From positions 1,154-65,153 of the forward strand of contig JBKPAK010000189.1 of the NCBI GenBank assembly GCA_046726415.1: a stretch of DNA of 64,000 bases. The letters run 5' to 3'. Below the pieces are notes generated by a model that was not told the origin of the DNA, did not search any database, and saw nothing but the letters and a program-made list of their open reading frames with translations. Of this stretch, positions 32,448-40,115 are shown piece after piece (within the stretch, counting starts at the first letter, position 1; every line of letters starts with the position of its first letter). The DNA comes from Candidatus Methylomirabilota bacterium (GTDB taxonomy: Bacteria; Methylomirabilota; Methylomirabilia; Rokubacteriales; CSP1-6). Both the position numbers and the translations under genes were made by a program.

Positions 32448-33617
32448 ATGAGTACCGTCAAAGCCCTGATTGGTCAGGCTGTCGACAGCCTCGCCGATGA
32501 GCTGGAACAGCTTTCCCACCAGATCCACGCCAACCCGGAACTCGGCTATCAGGAGATCAAGGCGGCCGGCTGGCTTTGCGATTTCCTCGCCGCCCAGGGC
32601 TACGAGGTCGAGCGGGGGGTGGCAGGAATCGACACGGCGTTTCGAGCCATCATCGACAACGGCGACGGCCCCACCATCGCCATCCTGTGCGAATACGACG
32701 CCCTCCCCGCCATCGGCCACGCCTGCGGGCACAACGTGATCGCCGCCTCTGGCGCCGGAGCCGGAGCGGCCCTGGCGCGCGTGAGGGCCACGCTGCCCCG
32801 CGGACGCCTGGTGGTCGTCGGGACCCCGGCCGAGGAAGGTGGTGGTGGCAAGGTCCGACTCCTCAAGGGGAACGTCTTCAAGTCCGTGGATGTCGCTATG
32901 ATGGTGCACGGGTGGGACCGGTGGATCGGGCACCAGGATCTTCTGGGTATCGTCCGCGTGGGCTTCGAGTTCACCGGCAAGGCCGCCCACGCCGCCGCCG
33001 ACCCCTGGGAAGGCGTCAACGCGCTCGATGCCGTCGTCCAAACCTTCAACAACGTCAGCATGCTGCGCCAGCAGATTCGCCCTGATGCGCGCATCCATGG
33101 CATTGTGACGAATGGCGGCGCGGCCGCCAACATCATCCCGGAGGCGGCGGCCGCCCTGTTCTACGTGCGCGCGGCGAAGCTCGACTACATGTGGGAGCTG
33201 CACCGTCGGGTGATCGCGTGCGCGGAGGGCGCCGCCCGGGCCACGGGATGCTCACTCAAGGTCGTGGAGAACGAACACGCCTATGAGCCGATGAAGCGCA
33301 ACGAGACGCTTCTCGACCTCTTCCGCGCAAACCTCCAGGCCCTCGGGGCGGTGGAGTCTCCCGAGGTCCGCGACCGCCTGGGTTCATCGGACGTCGGCAA
33401 CGTGAGCCAGGTGATTCCGGCCATTCAACCCCTCGTGAAGATCGCCCCCGAAGGTACCCCGATTCACTCCCGTGCCTTCGAGGCCGCGGCCGCCGCGCCC
33501 CTCGCCCGGGAGGGAATGCTGATCGCCGCCAAAACCATGGCCATGACGTCGTTCGATCTGCTCGCCGATCCCTCCCTGGTGGCCAAGGCCCGGCAGGAGT
33601 TCGAGGCCACGCCGTGA
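32448..33617 (+). CDS. M20D-family amidohydrolase (AbgB / hippurate-hydrolase-like peptidase).
   Basis: MSTVKALIGQAVDSLADELEQLSHQIHANPELGYQE...ILCEYDALPAIGHACGHNVIAASG matches M20D metal-binding motifs. An aggag RBS precedes the ATG. The upstream part of track ORF 30918..33617 is a wrong-frame read-through. Confidence 0.8.
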   Translation: MSTVKALIGQAVDSLADELEQLSHQIHANPELGYQEIKAAGWLCDFLAAQGYEVERGVAGIDTAFRAIIDNGDGPTIAILCEYDALPAIGHACGHNVIAASGAGAGAALARVRATLPRGRLVVVGTPAEEGGGGKVRLLKGNVFKSVDVAMMVHGWDRWIGHQDLLGIVRVGFEFTGKAAHAAADPWEGVNALDAVVQTFNNVSMLRQQIRPDARIHGIVTNGGAAANIIPEAAAALFYVRAAKLDYMWELHRRVIACAEGAARATGCSLKVVENEHAYEPMKRNETLLDLFRANLQALGAVESPEVRDRLGSSDVGNVSQVIPAIQPLVKIAPEGTPIHSRAFEAAAAAPLAREGMLIAAKTMAMTSFDLLADPSLVAKARQEFEATP

Positions 33618-33708: not shown

Positions 33709-34077
33709 ATGACCCGTCAACGTTGCCGGTCCGCCATCCTGAGTGGCGCCCTCCTGCTCGGCGCAGTCGCGCTCGCGGTGCCCCTCATCGCGGGAGAGAT
33801 CGCCCTCACCGTGGTGAACATCGAGACACCACAAGGCGTGAAGATCTGGGAACCGCCGACCATCGTGGCCAAGAAGGGCGACACCGTGGCCCTGAAGCTG
33901 ATCAACCGCCACGCGGAGGAGCACGGGTTCGAGATTGAGGCCTTCGGCGTGAAGGAAGTCGTCGACGGGAACAAGGCCAAGGACGTGAGCTTCAAGGCCG
34001 ATAAGGCCGGGATCTTTCCCATCAAGTGCCAGCTCCATCCCGCGCACGTGGTGGGCCAGTTCGTCGTCCTGGAGTGA
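33709..34077 (+). CDS. Secreted cupredoxin-domain protein (Cupredoxin_1-like, putative type-1 copper site).
   Basis: Signal peptide. KLINRHAEEHGFEI and KCQLHPAHVVGQ form a His/Cys/His/Gln ligand pattern. Confidence 0.55.
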   Translation: MTRQRCRSAILSGALLLGAVALAVPLIAGEIALTVVNIETPQGVKIWEPPTIVAKKGDTVALKLINRHAEEHGFEIEAFGVKEVVDGNKAKDVSFKADKAGIFPIKCQLHPAHVVGQFVVLE

Positions 34078-34083
34078 AGCCCG

Positions 34084-34866
34084 GTGGGCTGGCGAGCGCG
34101 GGCGGTCATGGCCCTGAGCGCTCTGCTTTGCGTGGCCCACTCCTCGTTCGGCCAGCCCGCTGACCCTACGCGCGGCCGAAAGGTCTACGAGGCGAACTGT
34201 GCCATCTGCCACGGCGAGCATGGTGACGGCAAGGGGCAGGCTGCCCACCACTTCGCCTCGGCTCCCCGCGACCTGACCACGGGCCGCTACAAGTTCCGCT
34301 CGACGGCCACCGGACAGCTCCCAACCGATGACGACCTCCGGCGGAGCGTCGTGACCGGGATCCCGGGCACCGGCATGGTGCCCCAGGACCATCTGATCGA
34401 CACGGACGTTCGGTCCGTCATCGACTTCATCAAGAGTCTGTCGCCGAAGTTCGCGACGGCCACACCCCCGAAACCGCTCCCGATCCCCTCCCCGCCGGCC
34501 CGGACCCCCGAGGCCATCGCGCGAGGCCGCAAAGCCTACGAGAAGGGCGAATGCCGAGAGTGCCACGGCCCCGAGGGCCACGGCGATGGCCCATCGGCGA
34601 AGGACCTCAAGATCAAGCCCTCCGATCTCACCCGCCGACCGCTCAAGGGCGGAGCGACACCTCGCGACATCGCCCGCACCCTTTTCACCGGACTCGACGG
34701 CACTCCCATGCCGTCCTACCACTTGATCCTCGACGATGACGAGCTCTGGGATCTCGCGTACTACGTGGACTCGCTCGGCACGCCGCCGGTCGTCACCGAC
34801 GACGAGCGCGCCGGATGGCACGTGGTGAGGATGCACCAGCGTCGAGGCCCCGCATCCCCCCGCTAG
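34084..34866 (+). CDS. Di-haem c-type cytochrome (class I, two CxxCH motifs).
   Basis: Signal peptide, CAICHG and CRECHG. Confidence 0.75.
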   Translation: MGWRARAVMALSALLCVAHSSFGQPADPTRGRKVYEANCAICHGEHGDGKGQAAHHFASAPRDLTTGRYKFRSTATGQLPTDDDLRRSVVTGIPGTGMVPQDHLIDTDVRSVIDFIKSLSPKFATATPPKPLPIPSPPARTPEAIARGRKAYEKGECRECHGPEGHGDGPSAKDLKIKPSDLTRRPLKGGATPRDIARTLFTGLDGTPMPSYHLILDDDELWDLAYYVDSLGTPPVVTDDERAGWHVVRMHQRRGPASPR

Positions 34867-34892: not shown

Positions 34893-36488
34893 TCAGGACC
34901 GGTGGCGGCGGTGCTCGGCAGCGCGCTCGGCCTCGAGGCGTTCCAGGGCCACCCCCGAGTGGTCGGCAAAGCGCATGGCAGCCGCGATGGCCGGGTGCCC
35001 CGCCTGCTCGGCGATCAACCGGTGCATCGCCTGACAGATCCGCCGATAGGAGGGGTGTCCCTGGGGGGTCGTGCGCAACTCGATGACGTGCATGGCCTCG
35101 CGCGCGTTCATCTGCATGACGAATCGAACTCGGTACGCCATTGACACTGCGTAGGAGGCCACCTCGGGCATCCCGGCGCTGGCGATAGCCTCCCAGGTCG
35201 CAGCGGACTCGTCCATCACCTGTTCCCACTCGGCCTGGCCGCCGGCAGCGGCCACGGCTTCGGGCATGACGTAGCCGTGAGTCGTCGCGAGACGCTGCCA
35301 CTCGAGCGTCAGCAGGCGGTGCCGCTGTAGATCGCGGAAGGCCCCGTAGTCGCCGACGATGTCGAACCGGTATGATGTCCGCTCGAAGGCACGCCCTGGC
35401 TTGTGGCGCCGGTTCCCACGCGTGCCCACGTAGGATTCGAGGAGGCGGCGGCGCTCGTCCGCGGTCATCCGGCGAGCCATGGCGAGAAGCTGATCGTCGG
35501 GAAGTCCGGACGCAGCGTAGAGAGCTGCCGCCACTACTTTCACCTCACCCTCTGGATCGAAATCGGCGAGGGTCACTTCCCCCCGGGGCTCCGGCTTCAG
35601 GCCGGAGAGCACGCGTTCGGTGGCGGCCTCAGCCCCCGCCCTGGTCTCCGCGAGATAGGCCGACCACGCCCCTCCGCGCTCAGCGACGTCCACCCGCCGC
35701 AGGAAGGCAGGGATCACCTTGCGCAACTCGGTGAGCATGAGCTCTGCATAGGCGCGGACCTCGGCCAAGCGGTGTGCGCGCATTCGGAGGAGGAGCTGCT
35801 CGTAGCCTTGCCCGGTTCCGAAGATGCCTACATTGGAGACGGTGGCTGCCGGCAGGAGACCGCGCAGGGTGTCGAGCGCCTTGGCGCGAATCGTCATCCG
35901 GTACACGTTCTCGGATTCGTCGGCGGCCCTCGGGAATTGCGTCGCATAGTAGTCGCGCATCCGGGGAAGCCACGCGGCGTAGGTGGTGAAGGCGCGGTCC
36001 AGCGCGGCCATGTAATGCTGGCGAAGGACTCCCTCTAGTTCCACCGGGACGTGGTAGCGAAACCGGTCATCAGGCCGGTCGTCGTACGGGATATATCGCG
36101 TCGACTGCTCGAGATACGCCATCAGGCGGCCCCACTCGAGGACCTTGGTGAGGATGTTCGACGCGCCCTCGCAGGCCAGGTGCAGCCCGCCGAGCTGAGC
36201 CACCGAGTCATCGCCGTACTCGACGAAGACTCGTTCGTAGAGCTGCTCGGCGCGCGACGTCCCGACCTCGGTCAACGAGGCGCGCGCGCGGGATGTGTCG
36301 AAGCCTCCGGGAGCCAGGAATTCGTCGAGGAACAGCCGGCGGAGCGATTTGGGTGAGCGCGAGTAGCGCGCGAACAGCGCCCCTTTCACGACCTCGGGGA
36401 GGTTGACGAGCGCGAACACGGGACCATCGAGGTTGGTGAAGTAGGGCGCGAGTCGGGCGCGTTCCGCTGGGGTGAACTCGTCGCTCAT
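34893..36488 (-). CDS. Flavin-dependent thymidylate synthase (ThyX)-like protein, unusually long, with apparently two ThyX-like halves.
   Basis: The second half has AFRDLQRHRLLTLEWQ (ThyX RHR motif context FxRxxxRHR). The first half has VFALVNLPEVVKGALFARYSRS, resembling the ThyX N-terminal ARVS motif. Start at M94 of track ORF 34893..36767 (MSDEF...). Confidence 0.5.
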   Translation of the reverse strand: MSDEFTPAERARLAPYFTNLDGPVFALVNLPEVVKGALFARYSRSPKSLRRLFLDEFLAPGGFDTSRARASLTEVGTSRAEQLYERVFVEYGDDSVAQLGGLHLACEGASNILTKVLEWGRLMAYLEQSTRYIPYDDRPDDRFRYHVPVELEGVLRQHYMAALDRAFTTYAAWLPRMRDYYATQFPRAADESENVYRMTIRAKALDTLRGLLPAATVSNVGIFGTGQGYEQLLLRMRAHRLAEVRAYAELMLTELRKVIPAFLRRVDVAERGGAWSAYLAETRAGAEAATERVLSGLKPEPRGEVTLADFDPEGEVKVVAAALYAASGLPDDQLLAMARRMTADERRRLLESYVGTRGNRRHKPGRAFERTSYRFDIVGDYGAFRDLQRHRLLTLEWQRLATTHGYVMPEAVAAAGGQAEWEQVMDESAATWEAIASAGMPEVASYAVSMAYRVRFVMQMNAREAMHVIELRTTPQGHPSYRRICQAMHRLIAEQAGHPAIAAAMRFADHSGVALERLEAERAAEHRRHRS

Positions 36489-36604
36489 GCTGAGCGATGG
36501 TAGCACCGAGGACGGGCGCCACCTCTGAGAGGGCGGCGTCCCGATGATCCGATGACCCGGCCGCGGCTTCGACGGCCCCAGCGAGACCGCGGTCGAAGCA
36601 GGCG

Positions 36605-37699
36605 TCAGGAGATCGCGACCGAGTTGCCCGGCGAGCCCGTGGCCCCTTTGAGCACCAACGGATTGAAGGACCAGGCGAACTCGTACACGCGATCCTGGGC
36701 CAGCGCCGCGAGGTTGAGATTCTCGTTGATGTAGATCCCGTTCATGACGAGCCAAATCGTGTGGCACTCGAAGGGCCGGTTGGCATCCTCTCCGGGCACC
36801 GCCTCGACTGGCCAGGTATCCGCGCCGACGACGGCGATCTTCTTGTCGGCGAGCCAGTTCGCCACGGTCTTGCCGGGGCCGGGACAGCCTTTGTTGTACT
36901 CGTCGTTGAACTTCTTCCAGAGCTTGCTGTGCCCGGTGTGAAAGAGGACGACGTCGCCCTCACCCGGCTCGCGGAGGCCCGCCATGCGCAGGGTGCCCAT
37001 CACGTCGTCCATGGTGATGATGTAGTCGATGGCCAGCCGATCAAAGCCCCTGTAGCGCGCGACGTCGAGGAGGATGCCGCGCGTGAAGAAGGGCTGGCAG
37101 TTGTGGATCCCGAGCTTCTGGAGACCATAGGCGCCGCCCACTTGTTCCTGGGTAAAGCCGTTGTAGTAGCGGAGCTCGTTGCCCACCTTGTTGCCGATGT
37201 GGCCGAGGCCGTCGAACTGGGAGCCGACCTGGCCGACCTCACCGCTGAACATCTCATCGTTGTAGTACAGGTTGTGGTTGCCAAACGGCCCGCCCGTCGG
37301 CCCTCCGGGGATCGTGACGGAGACGTGGCGGGCGCCGAAGAGCGGGATGCCCGTCTCGAGCACTTGGCTCAGCGGATAGATCCGGCCTCGCTTGATGAGC
37401 GCCGCGGCCTCGAGGACCTTGGCCGGGGTGATGCGGTTATTCGCACCGCGCTCATCGGCGGGGCCCCAGGGCGAGGGCCACCAGTTCCGCCCCATCGGAT
37501 TGGCGGGGGCTTGGGCCTGAGCCTGACCCGCCTGACCCGCCACCACTCCGGCCGCCACGCTCGCGACGAACCCGGTCTTGACGAAGTCACGTCGAGAAAC
37601 GTCGCTCTCGGGCCCCTCGCGCCGGTCGGCCTCCTCCGCGTGCGCGCACGGCTCCTGGTGCTGATGCCCGAAGTATCGCCTCAGCCACTCACCTTGCAT
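36605..37699 (-). CDS. Cyclase-family protein (kynurenine-formamidase-like fold) with a Tat signal.
   Basis: SRRDFVKTGFVASVAAGVVAGQAGQAQA is a twin-arginine signal. HxGxH-like LFHTGHSKLW is typical of the putative-cyclase family. Confidence 0.7.
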   Translation of the reverse strand: MQGEWLRRYFGHQHQEPCAHAEEADRREGPESDVSRRDFVKTGFVASVAAGVVAGQAGQAQAQAPANPMGRNWWPSPWGPADERGANNRITPAKVLEAAALIKRGRIYPLSQVLETGIPLFGARHVSVTIPGGPTGGPFGNHNLYYNDEMFSGEVGQVGSQFDGLGHIGNKVGNELRYYNGFTQEQVGGAYGLQKLGIHNCQPFFTRGILLDVARYRGFDRLAIDYIITMDDVMGTLRMAGLREPGEGDVVLFHTGHSKLWKKFNDEYNKGCPGPGKTVANWLADKKIAVVGADTWPVEAVPGEDANRPFECHTIWLVMNGIYINENLNLAALAQDRVYEFAWSFNPLVLKGATGSPGNSVAIS

Positions 37700-37801
37700 G
37701 GGTTGCTCCTCCTCGTCGTCGAGTGCGCCGGCCCGTCAACCGTTCTCCAAGAAGCTCGTCTCGGACTGCGGGATGCCTTTCACAACGCGTCTCGCACCTT
37801 G

Positions 37802-37890
37802 GGACCCAGCCCCGCGGCGTCCTGCGGCTCGGGCTCCAGAACCTCGCCTCGGACGGCGGGGACCCCAGCCCCGCGGCGTCCTGCGGCTCG
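37802..37890. promoter_or_regulatory. Perfect direct repeat of about 28 bp (gacc(c)cagccccgcggcgtcctgcggctcg) occurring twice with a 60-bp period in a divergent promoter region.
   Basis: Both copies were read directly from the sequence. They lie between the cyclase start (37699) and the LLM oxidoreductase start (38005). Confidence 0.35.
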
Positions 37891-38004
37891 CACGACGCCC
37901 CGGCCTCGCCGCGGCGCTGTGCGAAGCGTGCCGTGCACCGTAAGTCGCTTGCGCGCGAGGTGTCAAGTGACCGGGTGCAGCACCGCATGCTAGGCTCACC
38001 GATC

Positions 38005-38994
38005 ATGGCCAGGCTGAAGATCGGCTTCATTCCTACGGAAGGTGGTCACTACTACCGCGAGGCGCTGGATGAGGTCACGCGGGCCGAGGAGCTGGGCTTC
38101 GACTCCGTGTGGATGGAGGAGCACCACGCCGTCACCAATCATTACTGGCCATCTCCGCTCACTGTCCTCGCCGGCTTTGCCACGCGCACGTCGCGCGTGG
38201 TGCTGGGCACGGACATCGCCGTAGCGCCGTTTCATCATCCCGTGCGACTGGCCGAGGACGTGGCCATGCTCGACGTGATGTCGAACGGGCGCACCATCCT
38301 CGGCATCGCCATCGGCTACAAGCCGGACGAGTTCACCCTGTACGGTGTGGACCTCGAGAAACGCGGGGCACGCTTCGAAGAACAGCTCGCGATCATGAAA
38401 GGGCTCTGGACCCAGGATCGGCTCGCCTTCCGTGGCTCGTACTACAGGGTCGACGGGCGACTCGAGCCGAAACCGGTCGCCAAACCCCATCCTCCCATCT
38501 GGATCGGGGGCTGGGGGGAGCTGACCTTGCGGCGCGCGGCGACCCTGGCCGACAACTGGATTCCGGGCCCGACCGCCGATCTGCAACGCCTGCAGGCGGG
38601 CAAGCGCGCCTTCATCGAACATCGCCGCGCAGCGGGACGAACGGAACCCATTGGGGAGTGGCCCCTCACGCGCGACGTGATCATCGCCGACACCGACGCG
38701 AAGGCGCGGGAGCTCGCGGAGCAACACATCATGGTCGCCTACCGCAAGGAGTACGCCGGCGGCTGGCGGCATCCGTTCATCGACGCGAGCATTGCCACGG
38801 ACCTCGACAAGCTCATGGAAGACCGTTTCATCATCGGCGGACCCGAACAGTGCATCGCCCGAATCCGGCGATTCGTCGAGCACTACGGGATGACGCACCT
38901 CATCTGCCGCACGTTCTTTCCGGGAATGCCGCATGAGCACATCATGCGCGAGTTGGAACTGCTGGCCCACGAGGTCGTACCAGCCTTCAAATAG
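38005..38994 (+). CDS. LLM-class (luciferase-like) flavin-dependent oxidoreductase.
   Basis: MARLKIGFIPTEGGHYYREALDEVTRAEELGFDSVWMEEHH is the canonical LLM N-terminus. Start at M95 of the track ORF. Confidence 0.75.
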   Translation: MARLKIGFIPTEGGHYYREALDEVTRAEELGFDSVWMEEHHAVTNHYWPSPLTVLAGFATRTSRVVLGTDIAVAPFHHPVRLAEDVAMLDVMSNGRTILGIAIGYKPDEFTLYGVDLEKRGARFEEQLAIMKGLWTQDRLAFRGSYYRVDGRLEPKPVAKPHPPIWIGGWGELTLRRAATLADNWIPGPTADLQRLQAGKRAFIEHRRAAGRTEPIGEWPLTRDVIIADTDAKARELAEQHIMVAYRKEYAGGWRHPFIDASIATDLDKLMEDRFIIGGPEQCIARIRRFVEHYGMTHLICRTFFPGMPHEHIMRELELLAHEVVPAFK

Positions 38995-39032
38995 GTCCTA
39001 CCAAAACTCCTAACTATCTGATATACTTCGGT

Positions 39033-40115
39033 TTGCGCCTCAACGATGACGCGCGAAAGGGGTGCTCACCGATCGCAAACGGCACGTATCGGGTCGATCG
39101 TTCCTACGCTTGGAACTACGCGCATTCGCCGTCTCTTCCCCGCGTGCGCCGGCTTCCGGGTGGCCCCGGAGGCCACCTCTTCGAGTACCGGCTGAACTCC
39201 AACCTGGGGGTGTCGGCCGGCCCGCTTCTCAATTCGAAGTGGGTGGAGGGCTATGCGCGGCTGGGCTTCGATATCCTGACCTACAACACCGTTCGATCTA
39301 CCTTCTGGCCGGCGTACAACTTGCCCAATATCCGCCACGTCGAGAACCGCGAGCAGGTGGCCGTCACCTCTCGCCGCCCCCTGCACGCCGCCCATCCGAC
39401 GCTCGCCGTCTCGCTCGGCAATCCCTCTTCGGAGCCCGACGTCTGGCGGAAAGACGTTCGGCGGGCCAGGGAGCGCATGGGGCGGGGGCAGGTCCTCATC
39501 GTCAGTGTCATCGGCACGCCGACGCCCGGGGGAGATGCGGAAGCCTTCGTGACCGACTACGGGCGGTGCGCGGCGTGGGCGGCGGAGGCCGGGGCGGACA
39601 TTGTCGAGGTGCACCTCGCCACGCCGGACCCCTTCGCCGAGCAAGCCCAGATGGTGTTCGAAAATTTCCTGCTGTCCGCGCAGATCCTGCACCGGGTGCG
39701 GACGACCATCTCGGTACCTGTGCTGGCCAAGCTCGGGGCCTTTCGGACCCCGCGAGCTCTCCACGAGACGGCGACCAAGCTGGCTCCGTGGGCGCACGGC
39801 TTCGTGCTGGTGTCGGGGATCCAGCGGCGCATCATCGACGAAGAGGGCAACGCCGCCTTCGATGGCCGCGATCGCGCTGACGTGGTCGGTGCCGACATGT
39901 TCGCGGTCTGTTCGCGGCAGGTTTCTGAGATGTTGGCGTGGCGCAAAGCCGGCGCCTGGGAACGGGCGGTGCTGGCCGTCGGGGGGATCACCACCGTCGA
40001 GCGCGTCGACGCGATGCTGCGCGGAGGCGCCGACGCTGTGCTGGTGGCCACCGCCGCGCTCTACGATCCGCTGTTCGCGACGCGCTTCCGCCAGTCGCGC
40101 GCCTCCGCCGCCTGA
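39033..40115 (+). CDS. Dihydroorotate / dihydropyrimidine dehydrogenase-family TIM-barrel flavoprotein (class-1 DHOD-like) with an N-terminal extension of about 40 aa.
   Basis: LNSNLGVSAGPLLNSKWVEGYARLGFDILTYNTVRS and the later VLAKLGAFRT...GADAVLVATAALYDP pattern match DHOD-family barrels. Confidence 0.65.
   Translation: MRLNDDARKGCSPIANGTYRVDRSYAWNYAHSPSLPRVRRLPGGPGGHLFEYRLNSNLGVSAGPLLNSKWVEGYARLGFDILTYNTVRSTFWPAYNLPNIRHVENREQVAVTSRRPLHAAHPTLAVSLGNPSSEPDVWRKDVRRARERMGRGQVLIVSVIGTPTPGGDAEAFVTDYGRCAAWAAEAGADIVEVHLATPDPFAEQAQMVFENFLLSAQILHRVRTTISVPVLAKLGAFRTPRALHETATKLAPWAHGFVLVSGIQRRIIDEEGNAAFDGRDRADVVGADMFAVCSRQVSEMLAWRKAGAWERAVLAVGGITTVERVDAMLRGGADAVLVATAALYDPLFATRFRQSRASAA

Follow-up and report, generated by a model that had tools for sequence, protein, structure and literature searches.

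A double-length ThyX of a Rokubacteria/Methylomirabilota organism belongs to a large duplicated-domain family with predicted composite active sites

Introduction

In a 64-kb stretch of DNA from a Rokubacteria/Methylomirabilota organism, hereafter termed the window, a gene encoding a ThyX-like protein of 531 residues is neighboured by genes for a cyclase, an LLM-class oxidoreductase and an FMN-type TIM barrel. Canonical ThyX is a homotetramer of chains of about 220-250 residues. The locus thus raises two questions: whether the long chain is a covalent fusion of two ThyX domains, and whether the four genes act together. The original prediction regarded a fused pseudo-dimer as unusual, and read the cluster as a co-regulated module for the modification or catabolism of pyrimidines rather than housekeeping thyX. 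All four predicted open reading frames were found at their proposed positions (Table 1).

Table 1. Coordinates of the features at the thyX locus, numbered from the first base of the window
Feature	Coordinates	Strand	Evidence
thyX, duplicated-domain type, 531 aa	34893..36488	-	ORF, Pfam Thy1, AF2 model, Foldseek
N-terminal ThyX domain, residues about 1-290	35619..36488	-	Profile match, residue map, family frequencies
C-terminal ThyX domain, residues about 291-531	34893..35618	-	Profile match, hhalign
Cyclase/formamidase-fold protein (PF04199), variable neighbour	36605..37699	-	Pfam, 69.6 bits
Two adjacent REP-like hairpin copies (partial 37801-37831, full 37840-37896)	37801..37896	+	Exact repeat, nhmmer
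LLM-class oxidoreductase, F420-dependent TIGR03619 (Rv2161c) subfamily	38005..38994	+	PF00296, TIGR03619
FMN-type TIM barrel, DHOD/DPD fold, second gene of the LLM-barrel pair	39033..40115	+	Foldseek; weak DHOD model matches

Overall architecture of the fused ThyX

The 531-residue protein starts at the ATG of MSDEFTPAER, the same point at which its alignment with relatives begins. The Pfam family Thy1 (PF02511) matched it in two separate stretches with a score of 137 bits (cut-off 24.8). By family profile, residues 77-265 in the first half match M. tuberculosis ThyX with an E-value of 3.5e-13, which bears out the ThyX homology previously claimed for this half, and residues 371-501 in the second half match T. 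maritima ThyX with an E-value of 6e-6. Moreover, the two halves align in register with each other (E 8e-5). Alignment against T. maritima ThyX using hhalign gave a probability of 96.8% for the C-terminal half and only 56% for the N-terminal half.

The AF2 model of the full-length chain has a pLDDT of 93.7 and a pTM of 0.91. Structural similarity search using Foldseek revealed that the best 50 PDB matches are all ThyX chains with a probability of 1.00, among which no double-length chain is present. Both halves adopt the fold of canonical ThyX/FDTS (TM0449 of T. maritima and Rv2754c of M. tuberculosis; PF02511), with target-normalised TM values of 0.6-0.73. Overall, two tandem ThyX domains are covalently joined in the 531-residue chain, which makes it a ThyX pseudo-dimer.

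Distribution of the duplicated-domain family

Far from being unusual, the fused form makes up a family of 4,586 clusters at 50% identity with an E-value threshold of 1e-3, and of 1,060 clusters at a threshold of 1e-30. At least 595 species genomes carry it, from several phyla including Rokubacteria, Acidobacteria, Acidimicrobiia and candidate-phyla bacteria, and members also occur in the reduced-genome Woesebacteria. The present protein is collinear over its full length with hundreds of proteins of 505-580 residues, and its close homologues (525-555 residues, 70-100% identity) are already named FAD-dependent thymidylate synthase. In three relatives (P0234, P0192 and P0226) the double ThyX is further fused to thymidylate kinase, and in another (P0197) to dUTPase; these fusions tie the family to ordinary dTMP synthesis. 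Within this large family, which already carries an annotation, the 531-residue protein is nothing out of the ordinary.

The chlamydial ThyX CT632, of about 529 residues, may be of the duplicated type as well. It was reportedly the subject of a biochemical study by Griffin et al. 2005. The duplication of the ThyX domain was noted in 2009 by Valas and Bourne, who described it as the sole thymidylate synthase of the Chloroflexi except Dehalococcoides (PMC3224940). The present protein shares this architecture but comes from another phylum, Rokubacteria. The sole description of the duplicated form that we found in the literature terms it uncharacterised.

Partition of the active-site residues between the two domains

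Residues were mapped by profile alignments to an approximate T. maritima sequence, of which residues 122-198 were checked, and their frequencies were counted over 55 diverse family members. The N-terminal half keeps E127, S129, R131, Y132 and R209, corresponding to the substrate-recognition peptide (E86/S88/R90/Y91) and R147 of T. maritima. These residues, found in this half only, occur in 54, 55, 54, 53 and 55 of the 55 members, respectively. Missing from the same half are R78/H79, replaced by W119/G120, and R165, replaced by Q227. The C-terminal half keeps the RHR triplet R389-H390-R391 (R78/H79/R80), lying in the second half as originally predicted, together with N461/R463 (N163/R165) and R472 (R174). 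Of these, R389, H390, R463 and R472 are confined to the C-terminal half, with frequencies of 55/55, 53/55, 55/55 and 54/55. It lacks E86/S88/R90, a segment that is deleted or variable in the family, as well as R147, which is mostly replaced by Gln.

Once the two halves are combined, the set of residues that contact dUMP in canonical ThyX (R78, H79, R80, E86, S88, R90, R147 and R174; for their roles see PMC3498832 and PMC5003785) is complete and at least 96% conserved, and the FAD-contacting residues are likewise the same. In contrast to canonical ThyX, in which the motif RHRxxSxxxxSxR is contiguous, no single domain contains it: the N-terminal half reads WGR..A....STR and the C-terminal half RHR..T without SxR, so that the motif is complete only across both halves, with RHR from the latter and SxR from the former. 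A further difference concerns His53, which in T. maritima ThyX is located near the folate/flavin site. Neither half has an equivalent, the aligned residues being D93 (54/55) and P364 (49/55), which suggests that the handling of folate or NADPH may differ. The FAD/folate/NADPH chemistry is presumably common to the fused and the canonical form. Since ThyX is an antibacterial drug target, a form with half as many predicted sites and no His53 equivalent could inform its enzymology.

The observed partition agrees with the make-up of the dUMP site of PolB, which is built from two monomers: Arg82/His83 and Arg193 come from one, and Glu94', Ser96', Arg98' and Arg166' from its neighbour (PMC5003785). 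We propose that the C-terminal domain would contribute one monomer's share of the canonical site, namely R78, H79, R80, the FAD-binding N163/R165 and R174, whereas the N-terminal domain would contribute the share of the neighbouring monomer, namely the substrate-recognition peptide E86/S88/R90/Y91 and R147. By dimerising, the fused chain would thereby mimic the canonical homotetramer. As the two domains differ in which active-site residues they keep, such a dimer is predicted to possess two complete composite FAD/dUMP sites, compared to four in the canonical tetramer, and its remaining two sites would be degenerate. The predicted degenerate pockets retain R80, a semi-conserved Arg or Lys at the position of R174 and an invariant GDDS motif, and could therefore serve anew, for example in regulation or in binding another ligand. 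On balance, we lean towards duplicated ThyX being an obligate pseudo-heterotetramer whose active-site residues have been irreversibly divided, with two catalytic sites and two degenerate pockets per dimer. In an enzyme that builds its sites from several subunits, this protein offers a clear natural example of a domain that was duplicated and whose two copies then lost complementary active-site residues.

Function of the fused ThyX

Two other readings of the enzyme were weighed against this model. Both halves might be catalytically complete, giving four sites per dimer, with the complementary losses being artefacts of alignment. R80 is indeed present in both halves, the N-terminal half has Arg or Lys at the position of R174 in 42 of 55 members and Arg at that of R165 in 15 of 55, and its alignment to T. 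maritima ThyX is of modest confidence, at the 56% probability given above. However, the N-terminal triplet is W-G-R instead of RHR and varies in the family, the deletion or variability of the E86-S88-R90 segment and the frequent replacement of R147 in the C-terminal half speak against a second full set, and independent HMMER alignments to PDB sequences gave the same registers; four complete sites are thus quite improbable. Slightly less so, but still unlikely, is that the protein is a specialised paralogue acting on another substrate, such as a PolB-like UMP C5-methylase or another nucleotide modifier, and not the thymidylate synthase of the cell. Homologues of altered specificity do exist: the nearest precedent for a pyrimidine-modifying ThyX is PolB of polyoxin biosynthesis, a UMP/dUMP C5-methylase that has the ThyX fold and, as a flavoenzyme, works on a pyrimidine nucleotide (PMC5003785). 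In addition, the protein scored 52.1 bits under the NCBIfam thyX equivalog TIGR02170, a model built on single-domain ThyX with a cut-off of 87.9, and the His53 equivalent is missing. By contrast, PolB is single-domain and homotetrameric and is encoded in a nucleoside-antibiotic cluster, whereas the fused ThyX has duplicated domains and its family occurs in many phyla without any biosynthetic-cluster context. The composite site conserves every dUMP-contacting residue, fusion to thymidylate kinase or dUTPase occurs in some members, and the duplicated ThyX was reported as the only thymidylate synthase of most Chloroflexi (PMC3224940).

We thus consider it likely that the 531-residue protein is the flavin-dependent thymidylate synthase of this organism, in a widespread duplicated-domain form, and that it has no relation to the neighbouring cyclase, LLM-barrel pair and intergenic repeat. 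The enzyme would catalyse the reaction dUMP + CH2-H4folate + NADPH -> dTMP. From the relatives that carry thymidylate kinase or dUTPase in the same chain, and from the absence of conserved specialised neighbours, we infer a catalytically active enzyme with a housekeeping role, contrary to the original prediction. No thyA or second thyX gene was found in the window, which alone says little for the whole genome.

The cyclase, the LLM oxidoreductase and the TIM barrel

The cyclase, encoded on the same strand as thyX, carries the twin-arginine motif VSRRDFVK and a hydrophobic stretch, both of which are conserved in five homologues (L001, L003, L005, L006 and L008). This conserved Tat signal agrees with the export proposed earlier and indicates a probably periplasmic location. 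The LLM-class assignment of the next gene also holds (PF00296, 214 bits), but its supposed likeness to RutA does not: TIGR03619 is its best match and the only NCBIfam match over the cut-off (187.7 versus 166.9 bits), and no RutA model is present among its best 25 of 33 NCBIfam matches.

For the barrel, the predicted DHOD/DPD likeness applies to the fold. Foldseek matched its model, which has a pLDDT of only 76, to the FMN domain of DPD and to class 1A DHOD with E-values of 1e-13 to 1e-15, a target-normalised TM of about 0.75 and 15-17% identity. The likeness does not extend to the sequence models, since the protein scored under the cut-off of every DHOD model (for instance 36.4 versus 330 bits). 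The catalytic loop ELNLSCPN of DHOD/DPD aligns to EVHLATPD, a provisional result that comes from a weak alignment with an approximate reference sequence, and the position of the catalytic base, Cys or Ser in DHOD/DPD, is variable in the barrel's family.

A dispersed REP-like element in the intergenic region

A perfect direct repeat does occur twice in the divergent intergenic region, but with a length of 27 bp instead of the reported 28 bp; its copies (37805-37831 and 37864-37890) are 59 bp apart, and zero matches of this kind are expected by chance. The exact 27-mer was found in 29 metagenome contigs, yielding 20 distinct 61-nt instances with distinct flanks. The element has a consensus of about 55 nt with a predicted hairpin of -31 kcal/mol. 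Only two copies were detected in the window by nhmmer, and several copies of the element are located 3-40 nt past stop codons, as judged from rough ORF calls. It resembles REP/BIME repeats in being short, GC-rich and hairpin-forming, with many unrelated intergenic copies, often just past stop codons and sometimes in tandem; however, its sequence is unrelated to that of enterobacterial REP, and zero Rfam families match it. We regard it as a REP-like hairpin element that is dispersed in soil bacteria and was not described earlier. A role as a locus-specific operator was considered and rejected, as the element is dispersed in at least 17 other contexts.

Neighbourhood of thyX in relatives

Gene neighbourhoods were compared over 83 thyX loci, comprising the ten closest (70-83% identity) and 73 from other phyla (Acidobacteria, Acidimicrobiia and others). 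The co-regulated module of the original prediction would join the thyX-like gene, the cyclase, the LLM and the DHOD-like barrel in one pathway for pyrimidines or a related heterocycle, with the direct repeat as operator. In its favour, the four genes are adjacent here, several flavin-type enzymes stand side by side, the barrel has the DHOD/DPD fold, and all three neighbours are found near thyX in four of the 83 loci (L001, L005, L006 and L008). However, in the other phyla none of the 73 loci has any of the three beside thyX, and the full set is broken in six of the ten closest, in which the neighbours occur in varying subsets alongside unrelated genes that are equally collinear (glycosyltransferase, threonine-synthase-like, 3-methyladenine glycosylase and ExbBD). 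The LLM-barrel pair also exists without thyX within 7 kb (L086 and L087). The proteins themselves point the same way: a Tat signal is conserved in the cyclase and absent from ThyX, the LLM falls in an F420-dependent subfamily and not with RutA, and the barrel, provisionally, lacks the catalytic Cys/Ser and Asn motif of DHOD/DPD. Together with the dispersed nature of the repeat, this makes a common module very unlikely.

The neighbouring flavoenzyme genes are thus not a conserved partner module of thyX. The cyclase, present in only seven of the 83 loci, is not part of thyX function. Local synteny of the lineage would place it, the LLM-barrel pair and the repeat beside thyX. As the module reading fails, little follows from the finding as posed: the locus carries a routine thymidylate synthase gene, whose form is already known from the annotation of many uncultured phyla.

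The LLM gene adjoins the barrel gene, LLM first, in L001, L002, L005, L006, L008 and L084-L088, so that the F420-type LLM and the DHOD-fold barrel form a conserved pair independent of thyX. This pair and the dispersed hairpin repeat are loose ends of the analysis, as is the recurrent adjacency of an M20 amidohydrolase gene to thyX.

Two ThyX domains in one chain

All four open reading frames of the original prediction were found as described. The G+C content of the window is 64-70%, and the nearest homologues of the 531-residue protein carry the names Rokubacteria or Methylomirabilota.

Features of the region around the double-length thyX gene
Feature	Position	Strand	Description
M20 amidohydrolase	32448-33617	+	TIGR01891, 199 bits; 1.3 kb from thyX
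Nitrosocyanin-like cupredoxin and two-domain cytochrome c	33709-34866	+	cupredoxin TIGR03096, 69.6 bits, under cut-off, followed by the cytochrome c
ThyX-like gene	34893-36488	-	531 aa; Pfam Thy1 in two stretches, 137 bits
Cyclase-family gene	36605-37699	- (same as thyX)	364 aa; Pfam Cyclase
Repeat-bearing element	37801-37896		one full and one partial copy
Direct repeat, copy 1	37805-37831		27 bp
Direct repeat, copy 2	37864-37890		27 bp
LLM-class gene	38005-38994	divergent from cyclase/thyX	329 aa; Pfam Bac_luciferase
TIM-barrel gene	39033-40115	divergent from cyclase/thyX	360 aa; weak Pfam Oxidored_FMN/DHO_dh matches
LLM-barrel pair	38005-40115		adjacent genes

Single-sequence search against PDB sequences aligned residues 84-268 with Mycobacterium tuberculosis ThyX (E 8e-5) and residues 421-496 with Thermotoga maritima ThyX. 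With a profile built from 55 diverse family members, these matches extended to residues 77-265 (E 3.5e-13) and 371-501 (E 6e-6), respectively, so that the first half is not a mere extension lacking ThyX homology. The two halves (residues ~1-290 and ~291-531) are too diverged to match each other in pairwise BLASTP, and a profile-profile comparison was therefore needed, in which hhalign aligned them in the correct register (E 8e-5). An AlphaFold2 model from the same alignment is confident throughout (pLDDT 93.7, pTM 0.91). Its best structural matches in the PDB are all single-domain ThyX chains, with no double-length chain among the best 50. Altogether, the profile matches, the half-to-half alignment and the model bear out the proposed fused pseudo-dimer.

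Active-site residues divided between the halves

Each half-family was aligned to T. maritima ThyX and residues were counted over the 55 sequences; residues 122-198 of the reference were checked against the PDB sequence match. The key positions are distributed over the two halves, except for the equivalent of R80, which is present in both.

Active-site positions kept in one half of the fused ThyX (Tm, T. maritima numbering)
Half	Residue	Sequences	Tm residue	Other half
C	R389	55/55	R78	W119, variable
C	H390	53/55	H79	G120, variable
C	N461	52/55	N163	T225
C	R463	55/55	R165	Q227
C	R472	54/55	R174	R235 (R 24/55, K 18/55)
N	E127	54/55	E86	deleted
N	S129	55/55	S88	deleted
N	R131	54/55	R90	E396, variable
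N	Y132	53/55	Y91	W397, variable
N	R209	55/55	R147	S445, family mostly Q

In published structures, the ThyX active site lies where monomers of the tetramer meet (PMC5954106, PMC3498832). In the ThyX homologue PolB, one monomer holds the nucleotide through Arg82/His83 and Arg193, to which the neighbouring monomer adds Glu94', Ser96', Arg98' and Arg166' (PMC5003785). These two per-monomer sets match exactly those kept by the C-terminal and N-terminal halves of the fused protein. A complementary division of the active site between the halves is well supported by sequence, and it is the single feature of some interest in this protein. We infer that a dimer of the fused chain would reproduce the tetramer with two complete and two degenerate sites. 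One departure from canonical ThyX is the missing equivalent of His53, replaced by D93 in the N-terminal half and P364 in the C-terminal half. At this position, the N-terminal half carries a near-invariant GDDS motif, with D93 in 54 of the 55 sequences.

A widespread form of ThyX

The double-length chain had been regarded as unusual, a view that the database searches overturned. In a word-indexed search with at least 8,000 matches, the best 120 all measure 524-573 residues and carry a ThyX or FAD-dependent thymidylate synthase annotation. When representatives at 50% identity were searched exhaustively with HMMER, 4,586 clusters reached E<=1e-3, of which 1,060 reached E<=1e-30. Most have 505-580 residues and matched along their entire length, and Acidimicrobiia, Dormibacteria and Woesebacteria are among the named members. 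Scanning one genome per species yielded at least 595 confirmed relatives, in Rokubacteria, Vicinamibacterales and other Acidobacteria, Acidimicrobiia, Binatia and others. Valas and Bourne (2009) wrote of a duplicated ThyX that it "has not been characterized" (PMC3224940); our literature search found no description of a fused, tandem or pseudo-dimeric ThyX beyond theirs, and gave no value for the length of chlamydial ThyX. The 531-residue protein typifies a ThyX form that is known, widely annotated and structurally unsolved.

Ordinary thymidylate synthesis is the role suggested by four observations: the composite dUMP site is complete across the halves, a duplicated ThyX is reported as the sole thymidylate synthase in Chloroflexi other than Dehalococcoides (PMC3224940), the fused form is present in candidate-phyla bacteria with reduced genomes, and it occurs naturally fused to thymidylate kinase or dUTPase. 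Such fusions were sought among the longer HMMER representatives, three of which (P0234, P0192 and P0226; 764-781 residues) have an N-terminal thymidylate kinase domain and one (P0197; 703 residues) an N-terminal dUTPase domain, all above the Pfam cut-offs. Thymidylate kinase catalyzes the step directly after thymidylate synthase and dUTPase the step directly before, and these fusions join consecutive steps of dTMP/dTDP synthesis. The 64-kb window holds no thyA, folA or second thyX, which says little about the genome as a whole.

Gene neighbourhood and intergenic repeat

The original prediction joined thyX, the cyclase, the LLM enzyme and the barrel into a co-regulated module acting on pyrimidines or a related heterocycle. 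We searched 83 fused-thyX loci (three from exact look-ups and 80 from the species-genome scan) by tblastn with all window neighbours. The cyclase was found in seven loci, the LLM orthologue in six and the barrel in six, all within the ten closest relatives (ThyX identity 70-83%). The three occur together in only 4/83 loci (L001, L005, L006 and L008); the cyclase is missing from L002, the LLM gene and the barrel are missing from L003, where AzlCD separates the cyclase from thyX, and different subsets occur in L004, L007, L009 and L010. Collinearity in these relatives is just as strong for unrelated genes, including a glycosyltransferase, a threonine-synthase-like PLP enzyme, 3-methyladenine glycosylase, ExbBD, a cation antiporter and the cupredoxin plus cytochrome c. 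None of the three was detected by tblastn in the 73 loci from other phyla, where the neighbours are, for instance, peptide deformylase, a ThiI-like protein and TatC. The LLM-barrel adjacency is tight in every barrel locus examined; in L084 thyX lies 2 kb away across AzlCD, and in L086 and L087 there is no thyX within 7 kb. With neighbours that vary even in the ten closest loci and an LLM-barrel pair that exists without thyX nearby, the module is not supported. Moreover, five homologues share the cyclase N-terminus, in which a hydrophobic stretch comes after MQ..WL...VSRRDFVK; this supports the predicted Tat export and argues against a pathway common to the cyclase and cytoplasmic ThyX.

The direct repeat cited among the grounds for co-regulation is real and present in two copies in the 305-bp divergent spacer, with a length of 27 rather than 28 bp. 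A regulator-binding operator is rejected, because the repeat is absent from the orthologous spacers of relatives and dispersed in unrelated loci. Twenty-nine soil-metagenome contigs (L089-L117) carry the exact 27-mer, in at least 17 contexts with mostly unrelated flanks and sometimes as tandem copies 60-63 bp apart. It belongs to an element of ~55 nt (consensus GCTCGCCTCGGACGGCGGGGC-CCCAGCCCCGCGGCGTCCTGCGGCTCG-CAC) with a predicted hairpin of -31 kcal/mol; beyond the full and the partial copy in the spacer, the window holds none. By rough ORF calling, stop codons precede several copies by a few to 40 nt. The element matched no Rfam family, and neither tandem-repeat nor promoter/terminator scanning of the intergenic region added anything useful. 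It behaves like a dispersed element of the REP type.

Identity of the neighbouring enzymes

The likeness of the LLM enzyme to RutA did not hold: only TIGR03619, an F420-dependent subfamily, scored above cut-off (187.7 vs 166.9 bits), and no RutA model is among the best 25 of 33 matches. A sequence search of the PDB found no relatives of the barrel, which automatic pipelines name dihydroorotate dehydrogenase (DHOD) and NCBI names hypothetical. Its predicted model (pLDDT 76) matches the FMN domain of dihydropyrimidine dehydrogenase (DPD) and class 1A DHOD (E ~1e-14, target-normalised TM 0.75), so the earlier fold assignment stands. We do not adopt a DHOD or DPD identity, since the ELNLSCPN loop aligns to EVHLATPD in a weak local hhalign match against a DHOD reference, and the base position of the catalytic loop is variable across the barrel family. 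In Rokubacteria (L084-L088, L001, L002, L005, L006 and L008), the F420-type LLM enzyme and this DHOD-fold barrel, which apparently lacks the catalytic loop of DHOD, sit side by side as a tightly conserved pair.

The cyclase has an unusually long conserved region (~35 residues) ahead of the twin-arginine motif. Around QVGSQFDGLGH, by eye, it has Gln at two His positions of HxGTHxDxPxH, the metal motif of kynurenine formamidase-type members. Its homologue lies in two separate frames in L001 (6794-7762) and L005 (around 4819), which points to frameshifts or errors of assembly in these two contigs.

On the other side of thyX, the cupredoxin and cytochrome c genes form a pair convergent with it, which is kept in L002 and L003. 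A homologue of the M20 amidohydrolase (42-48% identity) lies directly upstream of fused thyX on the same strand in ~25 Acidimicrobiia loci (for example L044, 5329-6915, L066 and L076), and within a few kb of it in Rokubacteria loci.
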